This document shows positions 5,305 to 63,727 of a DNA stretch of 64,000 nucleotides, piece by piece. The position numbers and the translations under genes were made by a program. The notes under the pieces were generated by a model. The model saw only the letters and a program-made list of their open reading frames with translations, did not search any database and had not been told where the DNA came from. This DNA is from Candidatus Wolfebacteria bacterium. Lineage in GTDB: Bacteria; Patescibacteriota; Minisyncoccia; UBA6257; UBA9933. Position 1 is the first letter of the stretch. Every line of letters begins with the position of its first letter. The stretch covers positions 421-64,420 of the forward strand of contig JANLIR010000007.1 in assembly GCA_024654025.1 (NCBI GenBank). Direction: 5' to 3'.

Positions 5305-5634
5305 ATGGGTGAGAGCAAAGACCAGTGGTTTTTAGAAACCGATGCGTTTACAAACGAATCAGTCGCTGATTTTTTAGCGAGCGAAGGAGTCGCGGCTGAA
5401 AGTACAGCTCAGTTCAAGGACAAGAAAGGAAGAATAAGACATGTCTGGAACGTGCCGTATCGGATAATTACCTTGCTCAAAAATTCGGAAAAGACGTTTC
5501 CGTTCAAGTACCGCGTTTTTGTCCGGTCCGGAGGACGCGCTATCAGGCCGTTTACGCTTCACAGAAAGAAAAAGACCTCGGTTCATTCCCGGCGGGCGCA
5601 AGAGTGGCTTCGGGAAATCGGAGCAAGGAAGTAA
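5305..5634 (+). CDS. hypothetical basic protein (island ORF 4)
   Basis: 109 aa; GAGGGGGTG SD; lysine/arginine-rich C-terminus. Confidence 0.4.
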   Translation: MGESKDQWFLETDAFTNESVADFLASEGVAAESTAQFKDKKGRIRHVWNVPYRIITLLKNSEKTFPFKYRVFVRSGGRAIRPFTLHRKKKTSVHSRRAQEWLREIGARK

Positions 5635-5646
5635 AAGGAGGACGCG

Positions 5647-5853
5647 ATGGGAAACGAGCTTAATAAACACCAGAAAGAAGCGTTGTCGGCTTTACGGGAA
5701 TTGGGAGGAACCGCAACTACGCGGCAGATTGCCGAGAAGGTAAAACGGAGCGTAAACGGAGTTTCTCAAACTCTCGGCGCGCTTTGGCTGGCTGTGAATT
5801 GTCTCGGCGGCAAAGGCGGAGAAAACAAGTGGAGATTGTGGAAAGAGATATAG
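5647..5853 (+). CDS. small winged-helix DNA-binding protein (island ORF 5)
   Basis: 68 aa; 'TTRQIAEKVKRSVNGVSQTLGAL' HTH-like; AAAGGAGG SD; strong terminator follows. Confidence 0.45.
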   Translation: MGNELNKHQKEALSALRELGGTATTRQIAEKVKRSVNGVSQTLGALWLAVNCLGGKGGENKWRLWKEI

Positions 5854-9195: not shown

Positions 9196-9322
9196 CATTC
9201 GACTGACTCAGGTCTTCGACTCCCTCGGGACTGAGTCCTCGGGACGAACGTCCGAGACTCAGATCTTCTGATTCAGAGAATCATCAGATTCGATGAACTC
9301 GAGGAGGTTGTCCTGAGTTAAT
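9196..9322. repeat. GC-rich highly palindromic element (REP/RPE-like or structured leader) upstream of 9365 gene
   Basis: local GC spike in AT-rich DNA; nested inverted repeats e.g. CTGAGTCCTCGG...CCGAGACTCAG (12-bp stem), TCTGATTC...GAATCATCAGA, GTCCT...AGGAC; shares 'TTCGACTGA' and 'AGGAGG..GTCCTGAG' with the uvrC insert. Confidence 0.4.
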
Positions 9323-10845: not shown

Positions 10846-11388
10846 ATGAATAAAAAATTATTTGCAAAGATTTTAGGCGTGGCAATGATTGCGGTTTTAG
10901 CGGTTGTGGCTTTAAATGTGGCTTTTGCGGAAAATGACAATTCTTCAACGTCAGCCGTAAAATCAAAAGGCGGTACGTTGGGATGGGGTGAAATGAAGAA
11001 GCTTTCTGACTACGACAAAGAAGAAAGTAAAAGCGGCCAAGCGGTTATTATAAGAGCTAACGGCGATTTCCGAGTTAACGGCGTAACTGCCAATTCGGTG
11101 AATGCTTCTTCCAGCTTAATAAACGTTACGTTTTTTAATTTTACAAGAGACGTTAATGTTTCCGGAGCTAAAATAATGGGTGGAGGAAGGGCAATTTCTC
11201 TCTCTGATATTCAGGCTGGAGACAAGTTAAATGCCGCCGGCAATTATAACGCTTCAACTAAAGTTATAACTGTTTACGAGATACAAGACATCACTGCGCG
11301 CACGCAGAATATTTCCGAAATTCAGAAGAGAATCCAGCAATTAATGGATATGATTAATGCGCTTAAGGCTAAGTTGGGAATACAGTAA
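10846..11388 (+). CDS. secreted hypothetical protein
   Basis: signal peptide; no recognisable domain; terminator CCCCCCTCCGActtaaTTCGGAGGGGG at 11399-11436. Confidence 0.5.
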   Translation: MNKKLFAKILGVAMIAVLAVVALNVAFAENDNSSTSAVKSKGGTLGWGEMKKLSDYDKEESKSGQAVIIRANGDFRVNGVTANSVNASSSLINVTFFNFTRDVNVSGAKIMGGGRAISLSDIQAGDKLNAAGNYNASTKVITVYEIQDITARTQNISEIQKRIQQLMDMINALKAKLGIQ

Positions 11389-32098: not shown

Positions 32099-34648
32099 AT
32101 GGAAGAGAAGATTATTATCAAGGGGGCGCGGGTGCATAATCTTAAAAACATCAGCGCCGAGATCCCAAAAAATAAATTGATTGCTTTTACCGGAGTTTCG
32201 GGAAGCGGCAAATCGTCGCTTGCTTTTGATACGATTTTTGCCGAAGGACAGCGTAGATATATTGAATCGCTTTCGCCGTACGCGAGGCAATTTTTGGGGC
32301 AGATGGACAGGCCGGACGTTGACGAAATTGTGGGGTTATCGCCGGCAATTGCCATTGATCAAAGAGCGCTTTCGCACAACCCGCGTTCTATCGTAGGAAC
32401 GCTTACGGAAATTTATGATTATCTTCGTGTTTTATACGCCCGTTTGGGAGAAGTTTATTGTCCCAATGACGGAACAAAAATTAAAAAATTATCATTGGAA
32501 GAAATCGTGGATATTATTGAAGACAACGCGAAAGAACTGAAAGAAGAAACGGTTACAATTTTATCTCCGGTCGTCCGTGGCAGAAAAGGAGAGTATTACC
32601 AGCTCCTTTATGATTTTCTTTCACAGGGTTTTAGCGAGGCGAGAATTGACGGGAAATTTTATAGTTTGCATGAACGCGTGGAGCTTTCTCGTTATAAAGA
32701 GCACGAGATAGAAATAGTAATGGATAAGGTGATGATTAATGATGAAGGCCGGTTGTTTGAGGCGGTTGAAAATTCTTTAAATTACAGCAAAGGTTTGGTT
32801 ATCGCGAAATTTTCCGAAAAAGAAATATTGCTTTCTTCAAATTGGACTTGCCCGGTTGATAATTTTTCTTTTCCGGAAGTCGAGCCAAGGCTTTTTTCTT
32901 TTAACAGCCCGCACGGCGCGTGCCCGACTTGTTTCGGACTCGGAAAGACCGATTTGTTTTTGAAAACGATTTGTCCCGATTGTAACGGAAAAAGATTGAA
33001 GCCGGAGTCGCTTTCGGTAAAAATCGGCGGCACTTCGACAGGCTCAGTACAAGGCAAAAGTATTTATGAAGTTTGCAATTTATCGCTCAGCCAAGCTCGC
33101 GATTTTTTTGCAAGTTATAAAAAGAAAATGTCTTTACGGGAAAAGAAAATTGCTCTTAATGTTGTTGAGGAAATAGAAAACCGGCTGCAATTTTTACTGG
33201 AAGTCGGCCTTGATTACTTAACTTTAAACCGGGAAGCGGAAACGCTTTCAGGCGGCGAAGCGCAGAGAATTAGATTGGCTTCCCAGATTGGCTCAAAACT
33301 TTCAGGCACTCTTTACGTTTTGGATGAACCGACCATTGGGCTTCATGAAAGAGACACGGAAAAATTAATAGGCACTTTGAAATCATTAAGAGACCAAAAT
33401 AATACCGTTATTGTGGTAGAACACGACGAGAAAACAATCCATAGTTCTGATTATTTGCTTGATTTGGGGCCAGGCGCTGGAGTGCACGGCGGAGAAGTAA
33501 CCGCGATTGGAGAGACAAAAAAACTTTTACGTAATACCAATCCGCGAACGCATACGAACACCACGAACAAAGAATTCGAAAATTCGCTAACTTTAAAGTA
33601 TTTGCGAGGCACTAAGGAAATCGCTGTTCCAGAAATAAGAAGGCACAAAACAGCCGAATCAATAAAAATAATAGGCGCGAGGGCGAATAATTTAAAAAAT
33701 ATCGACGTCGAGTTTCCTTTGAGGCGTTTGGTGTGTATGACCGGCGTTTCCGGAAGCGGTAAATCGTCTTTGCTTTACGATGTTTTATACACAAATCTTT
33801 CAAAAATAAAAGCGCGTTTTAACGAGCCGTTGGAAAACGCCGCGAAAATTTTGGGAAGCGAGTTTATCGATAAAATTGTAATGGTTGATCAGTCGCCGAT
33901 AGGCCGGACTCCGCGTTCCAATCCCGCAACTTATACTGGCATATTTACTCCAATAAGAGATTTTTTTGCCGAACTTTCCCAGTCGAGGGAAAAAGGTTAT
34001 ACCGCCTCAAGGTTTTCTTTTAATGTCCAAGGGGGCAGGTGCGAAGCTTGTCAAGGTGCCGGGTCTAATTTGATAGAAATGCATTTTTTGCCGCCGGTTT
34101 TGGTGGAATGCGAAGTTTGCCACGGGAAACGCTTTAACCGGGAAACTTTGCAGATTAAACACAAGGCTAAAAACATTTTTGAAATTTTGGAAATGAGCGT
34201 TGACAAGGCGCTGGAATTTTTTGACGGAATATATTTGATAACCGATAAATTGAAAGTGCTTCAAGAAGTCGGGCTTGGATATATAAAACTCGGCCAGAGC
34301 GCCACGACTTTGTCGGGCGGAGAAGCGCAGAGAATAAAACTTTCTAAAGAGCTTATCCATCCTTTGGGAAAGAGGGGATTGTTTTTACTGGACGAGCCGA
34401 CGGTCGGGCTTCATTATCATGATATTGAAATGCTTTTGAAGGTTTTAAACAAGCTTATTGAAAAGGGAAATTCGATATTTATTATAGAGCATAATATGCA
34501 TGTGATAAAATCAGCGGATTACGTGATTGATTTGGGTCCTGAAGGCGGAGAAAAAGGCGGAAAACTTATTGCTAAAGGCACTCCGGAGGAAATTGTGAAA
34601 AACGCGCACAGCATCACAGGGAAATATTTGAAAGAATATTTGAGGTAG
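32099..34648 (+). CDS. uvrA: excinuclease ABC subunit A
   Basis: two ABC ATPase modules ([10 protein letters not shown] twice), zinc-finger Cys clusters, LSGGE signatures. Confidence 0.95.
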
Positions 34649-34689
34649 GGTATGGGGTATAGCCACTAGGGCTTAGTGAGTAAAAAAGT

Positions 34690-34720
34690 AAGGACCTTTT
34701 TAGGGGTCCTTTGGCGGAGG
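34690..34720. terminator. hairpin terminator shared by convergent uvrA and the 34700-35098 gene
   Basis: AAGGACCtttttaGGGGTCCTT with T-run on the minus side. Confidence 0.45.
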
Positions 34721-35098
34721 AAAGGCTGACAGAAATTCCTCTGCAGTTTTGATGATGTAGTTTACTTCGGGAAACATTAAGCTGTGAGAAAAAGGCATTT
34801 TCGGGTTTGCGCGATATGGATTTACAGCTTCAAGCAGAGGCATTTCGGTTTGCTGTATAATTTTTCTTATCACGGTCTCGGAAATAGGAGTTATTGGGCA
34901 AAAAGCGTGTCTGTTTATATTCTGCAGTTCCTTTTTTGTATATCTTCCTTCGTCCAATCTTTTGGCGTTCTTTTTACCACCAATAAAGATTTTGTCTTCT
35001 TTCGCCAGCTCCTTTAATTTCTCGATAAGGTAAAAGGTGTATGCCCACGAAAAGCCGGTTATGACCGAAGGAATCGGGTATTTCGCTACGTTCTTCAT
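34700..35098 (-). CDS. hypothetical protein
   Basis: 132 aa; no confident family assignment. Confidence 0.4.
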   Translation of the reverse strand: MKNVAKYPIPSVITGFSWAYTFYLIEKLKELAKEDKIFIGGKKNAKRLDEGRYTKKELQNINRHAFCPITPISETVIRKIIQQTEMPLLEAVNPYRANPKMPFSHSLMFPEVNYIIKTAEEFLSAFPPPKDP

Positions 35099-35163
35099 TT
35101 TATGACTCCTCTCAATATGGATTTGTTCGTGTTCTGATATAATGAAATCATCGTCTATAATTT

Positions 35164-36498
35164 ATGTCAAATTTGTTATTAAAAGCAAAAAAATTTCCGC
35201 TAACACCGGGAATTTATATGTTTTTAGACGCTAAAAAGAAGGTGCTTTATGTTGGCCGGGCGGTTTCTTTGAGAAAGCGTATTTTGAATTATTTCCAGAA
35301 AAATTTGTTGGACCAGAGGATAAAAGAAATGGTTTTTTTGGCGCGCGACATTAAATATAAAAAAAGCGAAAATCTTTTAGACGCAATTGTTTTGGAGGCG
35401 AATCTTATAAAGAAATATTGGCCGAAATACAATATAAAAGATAAGGACGACAGGTCATTTGTTTATGTCGCGATTTCAAAAAAAGATGATTTTCCGAAAC
35501 CGATTATTGTACGGGGCAGGGAAGTGGGGAAAATTTTGTCTGAACCGGTTAATTCTCAAATTCTCAAGAACATTGGAATAAACAAAATTAGCGTAAGGAA
35601 ACAGATGCAAATATTTGGACCATATCAGTCATTGCATTTAATAAAAAACGCATTAAAAATTATTAGAAAGATTTTTCCATATAGCACTTGCAAAATTGGT
35701 TCGGGAAAGCCGTGTTTTGATTATCAGATTGGACTGTGCCCGGGCGCGTGCGTCGGAGCTATTTCAAAAAAAGACTACAAAAAAAATATTGAAAACATAG
35801 CGCAATTGCTTAAAGGAAATAAAAAAAGATTGCTGAAAAAACTAAAAAAAGAAAATCCTAATCAGGCGATGGCTTTGGAGCACATTCAAGACGTTGCTTT
35901 GTTAAGCGGATCGGAGTTTGAAAATTTTAAATTGAAAATTGAAAATTCCGCGAAGCGGATAGAAGGATATGACGTTTCTCACCTAGCCGGAAAAGAAACT
36001 TACGGATCAATGGTTGTTTTTGCAAACGGCGAAGCGGATAAAAGCCAATACCGGTTGTTTAAAATTAAAAGCGCGCCGGCAAACGACGACTTGCGGGCTT
36101 TGGAAGAAATTATTTTAAGGAGATTTAAACACGACGAATGGCAAAGGCCAAACTTAATTTTAATAGACGGCGGCCGGCCGCAAATAAGTTTTGTCTCAAA
36201 AGCGCTAAGAAATAAAAATATAAATATTCCTTTGGTCGGCATTTCTAAATACAGGAGGACTCGTCCTGAGGGCGTTCGACTGAGCCCTTCGGCGGTGAGC
36301 CGTTCAGGACGGTCGAACCGCTCAGCCGAAGTCCGTGTCGAAGGAGATGAATTAGTTTTCCCGCTAGGCATGAAAAAACCAACAAGAGAATTGATTGAAA
36401 ATATCAAAAGTATTTTGTTAAAAGTTCGCGAGGAGGCGCATCGATTTGCGTTAAAATCCAGCAGGCGCAAAAGAGGGATGTTGATAAGTAATTTCTAA
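35164..36498 (+). CDS. uvrC: excinuclease ABC subunit C (short; no C-terminal HhH module) carrying a ~30-aa in-frame insert
   Basis: GIY-YIG N-terminus 'PGIYMFLDAKKKVLYVGRAVSLRKRI', UvrBC-interaction and RNase-H-like endonuclease regions; insert 'YRRTRPEGVRLSPSAVSRSGRSNRSAEVRVEG' between conserved 'LVGISK' and 'DELVFPLG'. Confidence 0.85.
   Translation: MSNLLLKAKKFPLTPGIYMFLDAKKKVLYVGRAVSLRKRILNYFQKNLLDQRIKEMVFLARDIKYKKSENLLDAIVLEANLIKKYWPKYNIKDKDDRSFVYVAISKKDDFPKPIIVRGREVGKILSEPVNSQILKNIGINKISVRKQMQIFGPYQSLHLIKNALKIIRKIFPYSTCKIGSGKPCFDYQIGLCPGACVGAISKKDYKKNIENIAQLLKGNKKRLLKKLKKENPNQAMALEHIQDVALLSGSEFENFKLKIENSAKRIEGYDVSHLAGKETYGSMVVFANGEADKSQYRLFKIKSAPANDDLRALEEIILRRFKHDEWQRPNLILIDGGRPQISFVSKALRNKNINIPLVGISKYRRTRPEGVRLSPSAVSRSGRSNRSAEVRVEGDELVFPLGMKKPTRELIENIKSILLKVREEAHRFALKSSRRKRGMLISNF
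36250..36345 (+). repeat. GC-rich palindromic in-frame insertion inside uvrC (RPE-like)
   Basis: local GC ~65% within AT-rich gene; inverted repeats GTTCGAC...GTCGAAC, GGAC..GTCC, CTTCGGC..GCTCAGCCGAAG. Confidence 0.55.
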
Positions 36499-57098: not shown

Positions 57099-58691
57099 AT
57101 GCCGCAAATTTATAAAAAATTAAAAGGATTCACTTTGGTTGAAATAATTATCGCTGTTTTTATACTGGCTTTTTTGACGATTCTTGTTGTGGTTCTTTTG
57201 GATCCAGCGGATTTTTTCCCGGGCGCAAGAGACACGCGTAGGATTTCAGATTTGCAGGCGATTGATTCGGCTTTAAGTATATATAAAACAGAGGTAGGCG
57301 CGTTTTTTAAATCGTCTTCTGTTGCGACTGATCCGTCAAACGCCGTTATTGGTTTAGTGCGTCAGGACTGTACGGGCTATTCAAATTGTTTTACTTCTTT
57401 ATTTGCTTGGCAGGCGGCGTTTGGCGGGATAAATTTTGGCGCTTGCGCTCAAGGCGATTTAGTTTGCGCTAATAAATCTGCGGTGGCGAAAATTGACGGA
57501 ACTTGGACAAATCCAGATACAAGCCGTTTAAATATTGACGGATGGACAACGAGTCCTTCTAACTATATAAGAATTTATACTGCGCAAGCGGCGCGGCATA
57601 ATGGAAAGTGGAACACTAATAAATACCGACTTGAGGTCAGCGGGCAAAATCCAATCGGAATTAACGAAGATTATGTGCGTATTGAAGGATTACAAATAAG
57701 AATGCCCTCTCCAGATTATCAAGCAATTACAAACGGGTATAGCGGCGCGGATATTAGAATAAATAATAATATAATTCGCGGCGCGGGCGGTGTTTCTAAT
57801 TCAACCTTCGGGCTTTATCTTGATGGCAATATTAATACCGAAATAAAAATATGGAATAACATAATTTATGATTTGGGCAGCGGTACTTCTCTGTGCGTTT
57901 TTTCCTTTGCTAACCAAACCACCTACGCGTATAATAATACTTGTGTTGGAGCCGGGTTTGGTTTTTACCGAAATACGACTGGTTCCGGTAAGATGTCCGC
58001 TATAAATAATATTGCCCAAAACACAACCGACGGATTTAACGGAGTTGATTCTTCTTCTGATTATAATATTTCCGATCTTTCAAATGATGCTCAGGGGACA
58101 CATTCCAAGAATTCCACCACGGTGTTGTTTGTTTCTACTTCAACCCCCGATTATCACTTGTCTTTAAATGACTTAAACGCTAAGGGAGCCGGGATGAAAG
58201 GATGTTCTTCCTCGTCAATTATGACCTTTCAAGACGATATTGATGGGCAACCAAGAGGCGGCAGCTGGGACATTGGGGCTGACCAAGCTGTCCCTGATTA
58301 CAAAACGGTTTTTACCTCTCTTCCTGATAATAATTCTGCTTGTTGCGCCAGCTATTCTTTGCCTTCTCTTCCTTCGGATTGGACGTACGGCTGCGTTGTT
58401 TCTACGGGTCTTCAACAGGTAAATAGCGGAGGATGGATCCCCTTGGATTTTACTAACATTGCGGCAAACGCCATGTCTTTTCTGTCTATTGACCCGGGTA
58501 ATTCTACTTCAAGCGGGCAATATTACACTTTTGTTTCTGACGGAAAAAAATGGGAATTAACTTCCATATTAGAATCCGATAAAAATAAGGGCGTGGATAA
58601 GATAGGCGGTAAAGACGGCGGACAGTATGCTAATATATTAGAAATAGGGTCTAATTTAACCTTAACGCCCTCAAATGTTAAAAATAGATAA
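57099..58691 (+). CDS. large pilin-like protein with parallel beta-helix repeats
   Basis: 'KGFTLVEIIIAVFILAFL' prepilin motif; repeated N-x-I-x-G/N beta-helix rungs. Confidence 0.55.
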   Translation: MPQIYKKLKGFTLVEIIIAVFILAFLTILVVVLLDPADFFPGARDTRRISDLQAIDSALSIYKTEVGAFFKSSSVATDPSNAVIGLVRQDCTGYSNCFTSLFAWQAAFGGINFGACAQGDLVCANKSAVAKIDGTWTNPDTSRLNIDGWTTSPSNYIRIYTAQAARHNGKWNTNKYRLEVSGQNPIGINEDYVRIEGLQIRMPSPDYQAITNGYSGADIRINNNIIRGAGGVSNSTFGLYLDGNINTEIKIWNNIIYDLGSGTSLCVFSFANQTTYAYNNTCVGAGFGFYRNTTGSGKMSAINNIAQNTTDGFNGVDSSSDYNISDLSNDAQGTHSKNSTTVLFVSTSTPDYHLSLNDLNAKGAGMKGCSSSSIMTFQDDIDGQPRGGSWDIGADQAVPDYKTVFTSLPDNNSACCASYSLPSLPSDWTYGCVVSTGLQQVNSGGWIPLDFTNIAANAMSFLSIDPGNSTSSGQYYTFVSDGKKWELTSILESDKNKGVDKIGGKDGGQYANILEIGSNLTLTPSNVKNR

Positions 58692-60351
58692 TATAAATAA
58701 TATTGGGAAAAGAGAGATAAAAGTATTTTTTTCGTTTTTATTAACTATATTTTTTGGCTTTGGTTTGTTTTTTTTCTCTCGCGCAGACGCGGCTTACGCG
58801 CCACCCGCAGGAATACCTGCCCCGATTTTTGGAATTAACGAAGTAGCGCCAAGCACAGCCATAAAATGTTCTAGTTGGCCATCTGCTTTTTCTCCAGAGT
58901 GTTATTACATTGATAATACAAGTCCGGCCGCAACAGATATTGGGAATACGAATGGATATCCGAATAGGCCTAGGGCGACGATACCGACGACCTATGCCGC
59001 CGGTTCTTACGCAGAGGTTCGCGGAGGACCGTACAATAGTATTACGATTACATTCAACGGCACGTCGGCTAATCCGATATTTTTCCGCGGTCCTTCCGCG
59101 TTGGATCGGACGACAATTCATGGGGTTGGGCTTACGGGAAGTTATGCAATCGTGGAGTATATTAATTCCGATTTGAATGGCGGCAATGTAGGGTTTTTAT
59201 ATCCGGCGTCCTATATTTCTTTCCGAAATAATACCGTACAGGGAACAGGAGTTCTACTTACTGGAAATCAATCCGCCTTATCGTTAAGCGGCGGCACGGC
59301 CGGACACAATAATAATTTAGTAGTCTACAACAACACCATATGGAATCATGGCCAATGGAATTATAACACCACCGCCGATGTTCACGGGATAAAACCTCGG
59401 AACGATGTCGATGAGGCGTGGATTTTAGAAAATACAATTTACCATGTGCAGGGCGATTCGATTCAGACGGGCGAGGCGACTCTCGTCGGACAAAGTTACC
59501 CGACTAAGATATACATCGGAAAGAATATTATGTATGAGAATAAGGAAAATTGTATTGATATAAAAGGCGGAACGGACATTATCGTATCGGAAAATATCTG
59601 CCACGATATGTTAAACGCTTATGGGGACGACCAGATGGAAGGAATTGTTACTCATAATAGCGCGAACTGGACATGGTATATCAATAATACAATATGGAAC
59701 TCCGGGTTTGGAATTTATACCTCTGGTAGTGCAAATCAGTACGCGGTTGGAAACGTAATTTACAGCATCCAGGGGAGTTCCAATCCGTCTTCGTTCTATG
59801 ACTACGGTACGGGAATTATTTTTATCGGCGCCAACCCCGGGGCAATCGTCAATAATACGATAGACAACACTCAACATGGATATTCCGAGGCAGGAGGCGG
59901 CGTGGTGAATATGGCAAACAACATCATTTCAAATCGCAGCCTCGCGGCGGGCTACGACCAGATGATAGAGAACACGACCGGCAACACTTTAGACTACACG
60001 CTGACTAGCGGCAACACCAAGACTCGCTGGGGCGGGGGAACTTATGCCACGGCGGCGGCCTTTAATTCCGCTACCGGGCAGGGCGCGCATCATTGGGAGA
60101 CTAATCCGCTATTTATGAATACCGCAGGCAACGACTACCGGCTGACAGCGTCTTCTCCGGCAATAAACAACGGAGTTCTCGCGCAAGTATACGCTACGTT
60201 TCAGAACCGTTATGGTATTTCAATCGCGAGAGATATTAACGGAAATATTCGCCCGTCGGGAACAGCTTGGGACATCGGCGCGTATGAATATGTTTCAGGC
60301 GCTCCCGACACCACTCCTCCCGCCGCGCCAACAGGACTGTCAGTAAATTAA
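58675..60351 (+). CDS. secreted right-handed parallel beta-helix repeat protein
   Basis: signal/TM N-terminus; beta-helix rungs; C-terminus 'WDIGAYEYVSGAPDTTPPAAPTGLSVN'. Confidence 0.55.
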   Translation: MLKIDNINNIGKREIKVFFSFLLTIFFGFGLFFFSRADAAYAPPAGIPAPIFGINEVAPSTAIKCSSWPSAFSPECYYIDNTSPAATDIGNTNGYPNRPRATIPTTYAAGSYAEVRGGPYNSITITFNGTSANPIFFRGPSALDRTTIHGVGLTGSYAIVEYINSDLNGGNVGFLYPASYISFRNNTVQGTGVLLTGNQSALSLSGGTAGHNNNLVVYNNTIWNHGQWNYNTTADVHGIKPRNDVDEAWILENTIYHVQGDSIQTGEATLVGQSYPTKIYIGKNIMYENKENCIDIKGGTDIIVSENICHDMLNAYGDDQMEGIVTHNSANWTWYINNTIWNSGFGIYTSGSANQYAVGNVIYSIQGSSNPSSFYDYGTGIIFIGANPGAIVNNTIDNTQHGYSEAGGGVVNMANNIISNRSLAAGYDQMIENTTGNTLDYTLTSGNTKTRWGGGTYATAAAFNSATGQGAHHWETNPLFMNTAGNDYRLTASSPAINNGVLAQVYATFQNRYGISIARDINGNIRPSGTAWDIGAYEYVSGAPDTTPPAAPTGLSVN

Positions 60352-60367
60352 AAATGTAAAAATCAAA

Positions 60368-62008
60368 ATGAAAAACTATAATATAAAATCAAAAATTATT
60401 TTTCTCGCGATATTGTTTTTCGGAATTTTTGGTTTGGTGGAAATTTCCAGAGCCGCTTGGACTCCGCCGATAGGCATTCCTGTGCCGCCGTTTCCTTCAG
60501 ATTTAGATGTGGTGCGCCCCGCGCCTCCAATTCCCTGGACTTCGGAAGTGGCGGGAAATTATTACATTCAGCGCGACCAGGCGGGATGTTCCGATTCTCG
60601 CGCCTACGGGGCCCCCTCTGCGGCTAGGTGTTCTCTTCCGTCTTCTCCGCCTGCAGGATCTAAAGTATTTTTACACGGGGTATATTCAACATATCCAACT
60701 ATTTCGTGGACGGGAACGGCCAATAGTCCAATTTGGTTAATAGCGTATGATAATTCGAATAAACCAAATATGTCTAATGGCTACGCTGTAAATAGTATCT
60801 ATACTATTTTAGACGGGATTTCTTCTTCGATGACCGTTTCTGGCGGCATAGGCGTGGCTGGACGCTACACAATGTTGCGTAATTTTACGTTTACAAACTC
60901 CGCTGACGGATCGAACTATTCAGGCGTTGCAGTAGGCGGCGGTGGAAATAATATTGTGATATACAAAGCAACAGTTGGTCCTTTGGGGAATTGGCAATAT
61001 GCGGGCGCTGGCGATATCGATACTCATGGCGGAAACGTAAGCGGGAATGCTAATTATATTTGGTTTCTTGATTCTACTTGGTTTCACGCTCATGGCGATG
61101 GAATACAGATAGAAAATGGTTCTGGAAACGCTGCTGGAGCGCATCATATTTATATCGGCAGGAATCTTGCTTACGAAAACTATCAGTCAGGGTTTTGGAC
61201 TAAAAACGCCACTGACGTAATTATGTCTCAGAACGAAGTGTGGGGCATGCATGTAATCCCAACTAATGCTAGCGTTGGAGAAGCGATGGGGGGTCAATAC
61301 GACCCTAAGTACGTTTGGTTTATTGCTAACAAACTTCATGATTCGTCAATTGGTCTAAAAATGTCTGGCGGAAACAATGGTGGCGGTGGTCCGTGGTATG
61401 CCATTGGAAACGTGATTTATAATATTTATCACAGCACTGCTGCGTGTAATCCATGGGGAATGGGCGCGTTGTCTTATAGAAATGAAGGCGGGCTATATGC
61501 TTATTTCAATACAATAGATAACGTAGATTCTTTTATATCTGTGATTCCTGCCAATTCAGGCGAGTTTCGTGATAATATTTTTACAAACCAGTATACTCCT
61601 GCTGGATGTCCAGCGCTGAATGATGACGGGTACGGTACTTATACTATCGACTATAATCTTTGGGATAACGATAATATTATTACAAAATATAATGGGACAA
61701 TTCGTACAACGTTATCTTCATTTGCCTCCGCGACGGGGCAGGAGACGCATCGGGTAGTTGGGAGCCCGCTGCTAAACGTCGACCGCTCGATATCAAGCAA
61801 CTCTCCCGCGATTGACACTGCAAATCCTACGGAGGAAGCGGTATTTGCTACATTTCAGTCTCGGTACGGAGTTGATATTCGAAAAGATTTCGCAGGGTCA
61901 ACTCGTCCCAGCGGCGCGCGGTGGGACATTGGCGCGTATGAATACGTTTCCGGAGCTCCGGTTGATACTACTCCTCCCGCCGCGCCAAGCGGACTAGTGG
62001 TTAATTAA
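60368..62008 (+). CDS. secreted parallel beta-helix repeat protein (paralog of 58675-60351)
   Basis: same architecture; C-terminus 'WDIGAYEYVSGAPVDTTPPAAPSGLVVN'. Confidence 0.55.
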   Translation: MKNYNIKSKIIFLAILFFGIFGLVEISRAAWTPPIGIPVPPFPSDLDVVRPAPPIPWTSEVAGNYYIQRDQAGCSDSRAYGAPSAARCSLPSSPPAGSKVFLHGVYSTYPTISWTGTANSPIWLIAYDNSNKPNMSNGYAVNSIYTILDGISSSMTVSGGIGVAGRYTMLRNFTFTNSADGSNYSGVAVGGGGNNIVIYKATVGPLGNWQYAGAGDIDTHGGNVSGNANYIWFLDSTWFHAHGDGIQIENGSGNAAGAHHIYIGRNLAYENYQSGFWTKNATDVIMSQNEVWGMHVIPTNASVGEAMGGQYDPKYVWFIANKLHDSSIGLKMSGGNNGGGGPWYAIGNVIYNIYHSTAACNPWGMGALSYRNEGGLYAYFNTIDNVDSFISVIPANSGEFRDNIFTNQYTPAGCPALNDDGYGTYTIDYNLWDNDNIITKYNGTIRTTLSSFASATGQETHRVVGSPLLNVDRSISSNSPAIDTANPTEEAVFATFQSRYGVDIRKDFAGSTRPSGARWDIGAYEYVSGAPVDTTPPAAPSGLVVN

Positions 62009-62038
62009 ATTTATTAATATCCGTGTTATAATTTATTT

Positions 62039-63727
62039 ATGCGTAGAATTTTAACAATATTATTTATTTTGGGACTGGCTTTAATTATTTTCCCATTAAA
62101 TAAAACTAATGCGGCGCGTATTTGGTCGTCTGGGCTTGAATTGGCAAGTAGCACAGCCGAAGGGCTTGCTAATTCAGGGACAGGGCCTTCTATGGTTTTG
62201 GCAACTTCTACCGTAAGGAGCGGCTCTTATTCTTTGAAGACTCCGTCTTTAATTTCGGGTTCGTCTACGATTTCGCGTTATGCATTTGCAGCAAGTAATT
62301 CTACTGGCCCGTTTTATTTTAGATTCAATTTTTATATTTCTAATTTGCCGTCGGCCACAACAACTATTTGGGCTGCCGAATCCGGGTCTCCTTATTATAA
62401 ACGAGCCAGTATCGAAATTAATAACAGCGGCATCCTGGCTTTAGTATCACAGGAAGCGACAAGGATTGGTTATAGCGCCGTCCTCGCGACAAGCACCTGG
62501 TACAGAATAGAAGTTTTGTTTGACATAAGCGGAGCCGCGGGGAGTCATATAACAAGATCTAGATTAAACGGAGTTGAGTTTGCTTCATCAACTACTTTAA
62601 CTATTGCTGCGGGCGTCCAAAATTATTCTGTGGGCGGAAATATTTTAAGTGAAAGCCAGTCAGGCGGGCTGTGGTATTTCGATGATTTGGCGTTTAACGA
62701 TAATACGGGTTCATACCAAACAAGTTATCCTGGCGAAGGAAAGATTGTACATTTAAAACCGAACGCCGCTGGGGATAATGCTATGGGCACTTCCACTCCC
62801 TCGGGCCAATCCGCGTTTTCTGTTGTAAATGAATTACCGCCTAATAATGACACTAATTATTGGGCGTTAACAACCGATAACGATATTCTTGACGTGAATT
62901 TAGATTCTTTTGCTTCAACGAGCATAAAATCAATTGACACCATAAACCTAGTTAATGTCGGAATTATTACAAGAAATTCCGCCGCGGGAACTTCGCAATT
63001 TATTTTAAGAGTTAAATCGCAATCTAGCGGAACAGTAGCCACAGGGACAACGATGGATTGGAGTTTGTCTTCTTCTTGGTACCCGATAACTCTGCTGTCT
63101 TCTTATGTAAATCCTCAGGCAGGAGGGAGTTGGACGCCCGCGTTACTTGAAAACGCCCAAGCGGGTATAATAGCAACTATTGCGACCCCGAATGTTTTTG
63201 TAACTTCTATGTGGGCCTTAGTTGAATATATTTCCGTTCCTTTTGCTCCGTCTTCATTAGGGCCGTCAAACAAAGTAGACGGCTCCTGGTCTACTTCTAC
63301 CCAGCCAACATTGTCTTTCACTCAATCAGACTCTGATGCTTCTAGCACCATTAAATATACCATTCAAATCTCCACATCTTCTTCTTTTGCTTCCCAAGCT
63401 GTTGATTATGAATCAGCTCTCTTGGCTCAAGGTTCAACTTCATTTACCGTTGGCCAGGCTGCTGGAGGAGGAGCATACACAGTAGGTACGTCATCACAAA
63501 CATTACCTGATGGACAATACTACTGGAGAGTGATGTCAACTAATAATAATAATGTGACTTCATCATACACAACCGCCAATAGCGGAGCAGTTGCTTTTGG
63601 AATAGATACAACCGCTCCCACAGGAACAATAGCTTCATCAACATATGGAACCATCACCAGTTCATCAATAATCATCAACAGGCCTTCTACTTCAACGATC
63701 ATAGAAAGTGGTTCAGGACTTTATTAA
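62039..63727 (+). pseudogene. secreted S/T-rich lectin/FN3-like protein interrupted by an in-frame TAA; the reading frame continues open to the window end
   Basis: after the TAA at 63725-63727 the same frame stays open and encodes an FN3-like segment (…NTQYTYDVRFIDLMGNISSYGATSSKYTLTP…). Confidence 0.4.

Follow-up and report, generated by a model that had tools for sequence, protein, structure and literature searches.

GC-rich palindromic insertions in the coding regions of an AT-rich genome are known as the GC clusters or 'byps' of yeast mitochondria; byps are passed over during translation and can therefore be of any length with respect to the reading frame. [quoted passage not shown] Among the repetitive extragenic palindromes (REP) two superfamilies with either GTAG or CGTC as end tag are distinguished (PMC3733652). 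Here we describe an 87-nt segment inside the DNA repair gene uvrC of a Candidatus Wolfebacteria bacterium, located in a stretch of 64,000 nucleotides of contig JANLIR010000007.1 that we call the window. Very probably this segment represents one copy of a small dispersed repeat, non-autonomous and hairpin-forming, that integrated into uvrC, is read through and is tolerated as a loop. An earlier note on this DNA had proposed a selfish palindromic element inserted in frame and tolerated by its host, and this interpretation is supported by an empty site in relatives, by further copies elsewhere and by the loop position in the protein.

The host gene and the parts of the insert are located in the window as follows.

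35164 to 36498, plus strand: uvrC, host gene of the insert, an ORF of 444 amino acids (aa) with Pfam matches to PF08459 (1.5e-38) and PF01541.
36251 to 36337, plus strand: the whole inserted unit, 87 nt or 29 codons in frame, seen as an 87-column gap against the empty sites of L001, L002 and L008 and identical in L004 and L005.
36251 to 36269, plus strand: copy-specific 5' outer part ACAGGAGGACTCGTCCTGA, assigned from the fold, which among all loci compared matched only the orthologous uvrC copies.
36270 to 36334, plus strand: conserved core of the repeat family, the 63-nt consensus GGGCTTCGACTGAGYCCTTCGRCGGTGAGCCGCTCAGGACGGTCGAACCGCTCAGCCGAAKGT and then CC, forming the 65-nt centre of the insert (covariance model R1, 82 bits, E 1.8e-19).

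The encoded protein matches NCBI MCR4275669.1 from a metagenome-assembled genome (MAG) of Candidatus Wolfebacteria at 100% identity and shows the GIY-YIG and the UvrC RNase H-like endonuclease domains in Pfam; a typical UvrC from Patescibacteria has 385–395 aa. At 36250–36345 the GC content is 63.5%, compared to a window mean of 40.7% (standard deviation 7.7% for 90-nt windows), so that among the 90-nt peaks in GC content this region is one of the top four in the 64 kb, with the remaining three being within ORFs at 59.9–62.0 kb. The inverted repeats GTTCGAC/GTCGAAC, CTTCGGC/GCCGAAG and CGTCCTGA/TCAGGACG are all present, and the RNA of the segment folds into a single long imperfect hairpin (−50.5 kcal/mol, z = −2.5 versus dinucleotide shuffles), which is extended by pairing of GGACT (36257–36261) with AGTCC (36331–36335), with 36335–36337 as the 3' remainder. 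The GC-rich segment, its inverted repeats and its frame-keeping length, all described in the earlier note, were recovered at nearly the coordinates given there. As the DNA alignment fixes the insert at 36251–36337, the extra peptide has 29 residues and not about 32. Its translation, (Y)RRTRPEGVRLSPSAVSRSGRSNRSAEVRV, contains 8 arginines among the 29 residues. The open frame by itself is unremarkable, with 45% of insert shuffles being stop-free in that frame. Rfam 15 at a loose threshold returned nothing at gathering score for 36200–36400 (best E = 0.37, for a match outside the insert) and across the whole window only rRNA and tRNAs, no known family was found by Pfam for four translated peptides, and neither a terminator-like nor a promoter-like signal was found in the insert. 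As a 20-mer from the 5' outer part gave no match in a genome contig collection that does not contain the source genome, this outer part appears not to be shared.

We compared filled and empty sites. From 28 aligned UvrC sequences the two closest proteins, P0001 (98% identity) and P0002 (97%), carry the insert, and P0003–P0010 (70–84% protein identity) are without it and read GISKF-GGDELVFP. The empty site is also found at the DNA level in L001, L002 and L008, where TCTAAAT is directly followed by TCAAAGGAGATG, and the alignment is unambiguous: at 36251–36337 precisely 87 bases are added in the window as well as in L004 and L005, and both arms of the hairpin are missing from the empty site. No target-site duplication of at least 2 bp was detected at uvrC, the filled site reading TCTAAAT, the 87 nt and TCGAAGGAG versus TCTAAAT and TCAAAGGAG in the empty one. 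An assembly artefact could be ruled out, because the filled site is present in five independent assemblies of a 98%-identical lineage. The insertion into uvrC is recent and very probably took place in the recent ancestor of this Wolfebacteria strain cluster. Between the two insert-bearing genes of the window and L004 we counted 27.5 synonymous and 11.5 non-synonymous changes, giving a ratio of non-synonymous to synonymous rates (pN/pS) of 0.11, which shows that uvrC was kept under purifying selection after the insertion.

The repeat family was defined by alignment A2 and the covariance model R1. Scanning JGI metagenome contigs for the exact 20-mer GGTCGAACCGCTCAGCCGAA from the 3' arm identified 46 loci. 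Five of them are without flanking similarity, and the other 41 contain the complete core in most cases and truncated copies in a few. Core-like sequence is carried by about 40 non-orthologous metagenome loci. A 22-mer query against GTDB, with one genome per species, added 21 loci on 19 different contigs of one Zixibacteria MAG and in two other MAGs, one labelled Gammaproteobacteria (a contig of 34% GC) and one from Methylomirabilota with a diverged copy. The window core is 91–98% identical to the other loci over 56–60 nt. On AT-rich contigs the identity amounts to 98.3% over 60 nt for L055 (window positions 36275–36334) and to 98.2% over 56 nt for L031 and L014, for the Zixibacteria copies it is 92.9–94.6%, and for the rest of the family as a whole 93–95%. 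The core occurs in two sub-types that are distinguished by a pair of changes within the stem (U-G to C-G, A-U to G-U), the C/G sub-type being that of the AT-rich contigs including the window, and altogether the Patescibacteria copies (window, L031 and L055) differ from those of Zixibacteria by only 2–3 bases, all at paired positions. The consensus fold of the core is a 21-bp imperfect hairpin, and 95% of the cells are paired in the consensus structure versus 25–50% when the partners are slid. The Zixibacteria copies are numerous and mostly intergenic, with the core lying inside longer outer hairpins and adjoining other hairpin modules as composites. Apical or 5' deletions are found in the copies of L038, L041, L045, L046, L053, L057 and L064, and many copies are located at contig ends, as repeats behave so. 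By sequence similarity these loci establish that the uvrC segment belongs to a dispersed repeat family. One region is identical between L056 (4686–4761) and L061 (3441–3516), both on contigs of 34–36% GC, the first from a JGI metagenome and the second from the MAG labelled 'uncultured Gammaproteobacteria', a label which may be a binning error. The L056 copy has a possible flanking 7-bp direct repeat, AGAACCT, that was spotted by eye.

With these copies at hand, a local origin of the insert by slippage or by palindrome-building template switching, i.e. a lineage-specific loop expansion without any mobile element, becomes extremely improbable. The length of this loop is indeed variable across bacteria and several UvrA and UvrC inserts in the candidate phyla radiation (CPR) are hairpins of unrelated sequence, but slippage does not account for 56–60 nt that recur at 91–98% identity in dozens of loci which are unrelated and belong to other genes and phyla, nor for an empty site that is missing both hairpin arms. 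Local palindrome formation is refuted by the second copies for the uvrC insert and may still apply to the hairpin inserts of L008–L012. In other Patescibacteria, uvrC of L009 (about 11060–11130), L010, L011 and L012 carries unrelated inserts of 15–17 codons in the same UvrC loop, 6 nt downstream of the site described here. They consist of two tandem GC-rich hairpins, with a compensatory change in the second stem between L009 and L010 and a degenerate form in L012, and on these alignments the UvrC loop is a hotspot for hairpin inserts. Lineage-specific hairpin inserts are also present in uvrA of relatives, namely in L008 (1040–1129, 28 aa, −43.5 kcal/mol) and in L009 (7835–7879, two small hairpins), and uvrA of the window and of L006 has an 8-aa insert GGTSTGSV with 62% GC (33026–33049) and another one of 11–13 aa (33530–33568).

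At several loci long ORFs traverse the core in both orientations. Of the six core frames four are open, and each of these is used. The host genes are listed below.

L031, same orientation: MiaA (Pfam), core peptide STEPFGGEPLRTVEPLSR.
L026/L023: GT2 membrane glycosyltransferase (Pfam).
L027, opposite orientation: Mfd (Pfam), core peptide RLSGSTVLSGSPSKDSVE.
L049, opposite orientation: PilM, the Pfam domain being split in two, core peptide SAERFDRPERLTVEGLSR.
L051: N-terminal region of GrpE (Pfam).
L038 and L014: FtsE and a BadF/BadG-type kinase, respectively, with the core at the extreme N-terminus or in the 5' leader.

For MiaA, Mfd, PilM and GT2 the Pfam domains are found on either side of the copy or are interrupted by it. 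The MiaA copy, whose contig L031 was assigned to Patescibacteria via a homolog search with MiaA, provides a second empty site. From its 120 homologs 58 read KLAKKFGGEI and 48 contain an older 12-residue insert KLALRLSSGQAKKKFGI, and the 21 further residues encoded by the core are present in L031 only (1 of 121 aligned sequences including the query). At the DNA level L080 reads GCCCTTCGACTAA, AC and TCAGGGCAAGC where L031 has GCCCTTCGACTAA, the 63-nt core and CCTCAGGGCGAGC. As L080 thus represents an empty site for the core alone, the 63-nt core is the moving unit, and its insertion point in L031 was the loop of a small palindrome that is older. This older 12-residue insert, LRLSSGQAKKKFGI, follows the P-loop helix, is widespread in Patescibacteria and is encoded by the small palindrome GCCCT...AGGGC (L080, 10060–10100); the MiaA homologs P0127, P0135, P0156 and P0226 show further, differing inserts at the same spot.

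The lengths of the in-domain copies (87, 51 and 63 nt) are all divisible by three, and these copies are stop-free in the frame of the host. About 1 in 7 random insertions would have both properties. This bears on the question whether the insert reaches the protein at all, as the peptide RRTRPEGVRLSPSAV... would be absent if the segment were cut out of the mRNA or skipped during translation, like the mitochondrial byps or T4 gene 60. The setting, a GC-rich hairpin in an AT-rich genome, does resemble that of the byps, but a stop-free multiple of three in every in-domain copy agrees with the prediction of a translation filter and would not be needed for bypassing, and no known ribozyme or intron family matches the insert. 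We therefore regard an untranslated insert as very improbable. With a length divisible by three and a landing frame free of stops the repeat would instead be read through, and the insert is presumably translated.

In the AlphaFold2 model of this UvrC (mean pLDDT, the predicted local distance difference test, of 68) the RNase H domain reaches 85–92, and residues 364–393 have a pLDDT of 28–48 and no secondary structure, being located between the strands 357–361 and 396–398. The alignment with the UvrC domain of T. maritima (2NRR) halts exactly at GLAK and restarts at the helix with the catalytic His. Both the flanking strands of the model and this break point to an inter-strand loop, and the 29 extra residues are probably disordered and connect, as a loop, two beta strands within the RNase H-like nuclease domain, as the surface-loop position suggested earlier would predict. 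An arginine-rich loop of 29 residues next to a nuclease active site could also have been exapted, either for extra DNA contacts in a UvrC without the C-terminal helix-hairpin-helix domain or, through the mRNA hairpin, for translation pausing or regulation. This would agree with the 8 arginines, with the Patescibacteria UvrCs of our set, which stop soon after the RNase H domain and for which Pfam recognises only GIY-YIG and RNase H, and with the unrelated GC-rich hairpin inserts of other Patescibacteria in the same loop 6 nt away. However, close relatives function without the insert, no terminator- or promoter-like signal accompanies it, and as the same element occurs in unrelated proteins in four frames, the peptide was not designed for UvrC. 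A further argument against a function is an allele in which a large part of the insert has been lost.

The 90% cluster of P0001 includes the 431-aa member P0242, which is encoded on L081 from replicate R1 of the Hainich well H41. Compared to L004, L081 differs by one base and, in its region 5613–5700, by an in-frame deletion of the hairpin apex that removed PSAVSRSGRSNR and joined ...GACTGAGC to TCAGCCGAAG....

36286 to 36321, plus strand: hairpin apex, 36 nt, absent from the short allele, with a placement ambiguous by 2 nt (GC microhomology).

The insert is 51 nt long in the short and 87 nt in the long allele, and both were found in one well. The contigs L006 and L007 from the replicates R2 and R3 both stop exactly at 36285, which would fit an assembly-graph bubble between the two alleles. 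As the full core is present at dozens of unrelated loci, the 87-nt form can be regarded as intact and the 51-nt form as its deletion derivative. Hairpin repeats of this kind are also a cause of contig breaks in CPR assemblies.

Four observations weigh against a mobile and neutral repeat. First, no transposase or other mobilising gene was found within a few kb around each copy, and a search with the Y..NP regular expression of IS200 and REP-associated tyrosine transposases (RAYT) in ORFs of at least 90 aa from the window and 80 loci gave no candidate, this being a motif search over a few kb per copy. Second, covariation in the core is no greater than in shuffles, the copies being too similar and the 3' arm being fixed by the retrieval with an exact 20-mer, so that covariation gives no support for selection on the hairpin structure. 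Third, the 64 kb contain a single copy, a second one being found neither by blastn-short nor by Smith-Waterman alignment with a shuffle null nor by the unfiltered covariance model, and one copy does not by itself speak for activity in the Wolfebacteria lineage. Fourth, the inserts of the window and of L004 are identical, against an expectation of 8.5 differences from the synonymous rate (synonymous divergence of the two alleles 9.8% of sites), which could mean constraint instead of neutrality and would speak for exaptation. Yet the scarcity of substitutions spans the whole 3' end of uvrC, and the zero count would thus fit a recombination tract. From the 35 codons differing between the window and L004 seven cluster at codons 341–352 (36184–36219), and from the last approximately 92 codons only one differs. 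Such a near-identical 3' end after a cluster of changes suggests the edge of a recent recombination tract that includes the insert. Considering also the 36-nt in-frame deletion allele from the same well, we judge exaptation to be quite unlikely and infer that the insert is neutral or slightly deleterious.

A selfish repeat consisting of the 63-nt core and a copy-specific outer stem would therefore have entered the coding sequence of uvrC, presumably arriving either as a single 87-nt unit or by two events in rapid succession, of 24 and of 63 nt, both lengths being divisible by three. Read-through would add an Arg/Ser-rich, probably disordered loop of 29 residues that is tolerated at this position, with selection retaining only frame-preserving insertions in permissive loops, and the insert would now be decaying via frame-preserving internal deletion, as seen in the 87-nt and 51-nt alleles. 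How the repeat moves can be proposed from its architecture. Most likely its mobilisation would take place in trans, through an enzyme for which single-stranded hairpin DNA is the substrate and which leaves no target duplication. Since there is no target duplication, the core is a hairpin and copies are nested in hairpin loops, this would fit enzymes of the IS200/IS605 or RAYT type or an insertion sequence that aims at REP loops. No copies, and thus no vehicle, were found in collections of viral contigs, phages and plasmids. A recent cross-phylum transfer of a loop-aiming hairpin element that leaves no target duplication and needs no element-encoded protein, for example between a DNA-scavenging CPR episymbiont and its host, seems unlikely to us, though it is worth keeping in mind: if true, such repeats could mark who lives on whom.

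The window contains another repeat that shares short words with the uvrC insert.

9196 to 9322, plus strand: intergenic GC-rich multi-hairpin element of 127 nt from another repeat family, with a homolog at L045 681–800.

The earlier note had regarded this element as related to the uvrC insert because of shared motifs. These motifs, a 9-mer and an 8-mer, are literally present, but kinship as a copy did not stand: the similarity is at chance level (blastn-short E of about 20; Smith-Waterman score of 13, reached by 5 of 20 shuffles), and with R1 the element is the best non-self match in the window at only 11.4 bits (E of about 1). It was consequently rejected as a second copy by all three methods. 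Its similarity to L045 681–800 is much higher (about 78% identity, local score of 99 versus 36 ± 6 and a maximum of 56 for dinucleotide shuffles), and this homolog directly adjoins a partial copy of the core at L045 651–682. Both families are built from the short self-complementary words TTCGAC/GTCGAA and CTGAG/CTCAG, and by these comparisons they are separate families of the same class of repeats.

Several other features of the neighbourhood should be mentioned. UvrC of the window has a second, AT-rich insertion GKILSEPVNSQILKNIGINKISVRKQMQ (35527–35610, residues 122–149 approximately), which is common only to P0001–P0003, and other homologs carry R/S/G-rich inserts at further sites of the protein (about 52 aa in P0076, others in P0094 and P0016, and 'LPVGR' after FPYSxC). 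The gap between uvrA and uvrC (34649–35163, 515 nt) is filled by an ORF of 132 aa on the minus strand (34700–35098) without a Pfam match. The spacing is about 40 nt in the 98% relatives L006 and L081 and about 17 nt in L002, and from these distances the gap looks like another recent insertion. At 57099–63727 four tandem ORFs of 530–562 aa are located, the first one with an N-terminal methylation (pilin-like) motif. Several GC islands in these ORFs rank among the strongest in the window (59943–60680 and 61700–62005).

That palindromic selfish DNA colonises essential genes in frame, a phenomenon described mainly for Rickettsia, is thus seen in Patescibacteria too, whose reduced genomes were not previously known for such elements in the literature that we searched by topic. 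The family is open to testing, as a consensus and a covariance model are available, along with two genes for which both filled and empty sites are known and with two alleles from one aquifer well. It accounts for some of the puzzling Arg/Ser/Gly-rich inserts that are specific to single lineages in CPR proteins, and for a recurrent cause of contig breaks in their assemblies. Specialists might not expect a near-identical core in Patescibacteria and Zixibacteria, the nested architecture, or two insert alleles of an essential repair gene in one well, and the near-identity of the core across phyla raises the question how a 63-nt sequence travels.

Literature searches by topic and by peptide string gave no description of such elements in Patescibacteria, and the element apparently represents an undescribed family, which we do not claim as a member of RPE, of REP and the bacterial interspersed mosaic elements (BIME) or of the classical MITEs. 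From the mitochondrial byps it differs in that all copies keep the frame. It resembles classical MITEs in being non-autonomous and structured and in the size range of about 60–150 bp, but its insertion into uvrC lacks a target-site duplication, and among the loci compared no parent insertion sequence with matching ends is known; the hairpin arms of the repeat are themselves inverted repeats. With REP/BIME it has in common the GC-rich imperfect palindromes, the absence of a target duplication and, for the Zixibacteria copies, the many mostly intergenic composites with other hairpin modules. In contrast to them the uvrC copy is intragenic, no RAYT-like motif was seen in the neighbourhoods searched (a few kb per copy), and the two ends of the core read GGGCTTCG... 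and ...CCGAAKGTCC, the tags GTAG and CGTC not being conserved: CGTC is found only in some core copies at the variable K/Y position. Compared to RPE the unit is smaller (63-nt core and 87-nt unit versus approximately 100–150 bp), the hosts are Patescibacteria, Zixibacteria and Methylomirabilota and not Rickettsia, and the core hardly differs between phyla. In addition, the repeat is built from nested modules, with older or outer hairpins enclosing the core, and the copy density in this genome is low. As the host phylum differs, the resemblance to RPE that had been pointed out before is retained as an analogy of behaviour and not as family membership, and in this behaviour the two would agree closely: a short palindromic repeat dispersed in frame in unrelated genes, here uvrC, miaA, mfd, pilM and the gene for a GT2 glycosyltransferase.

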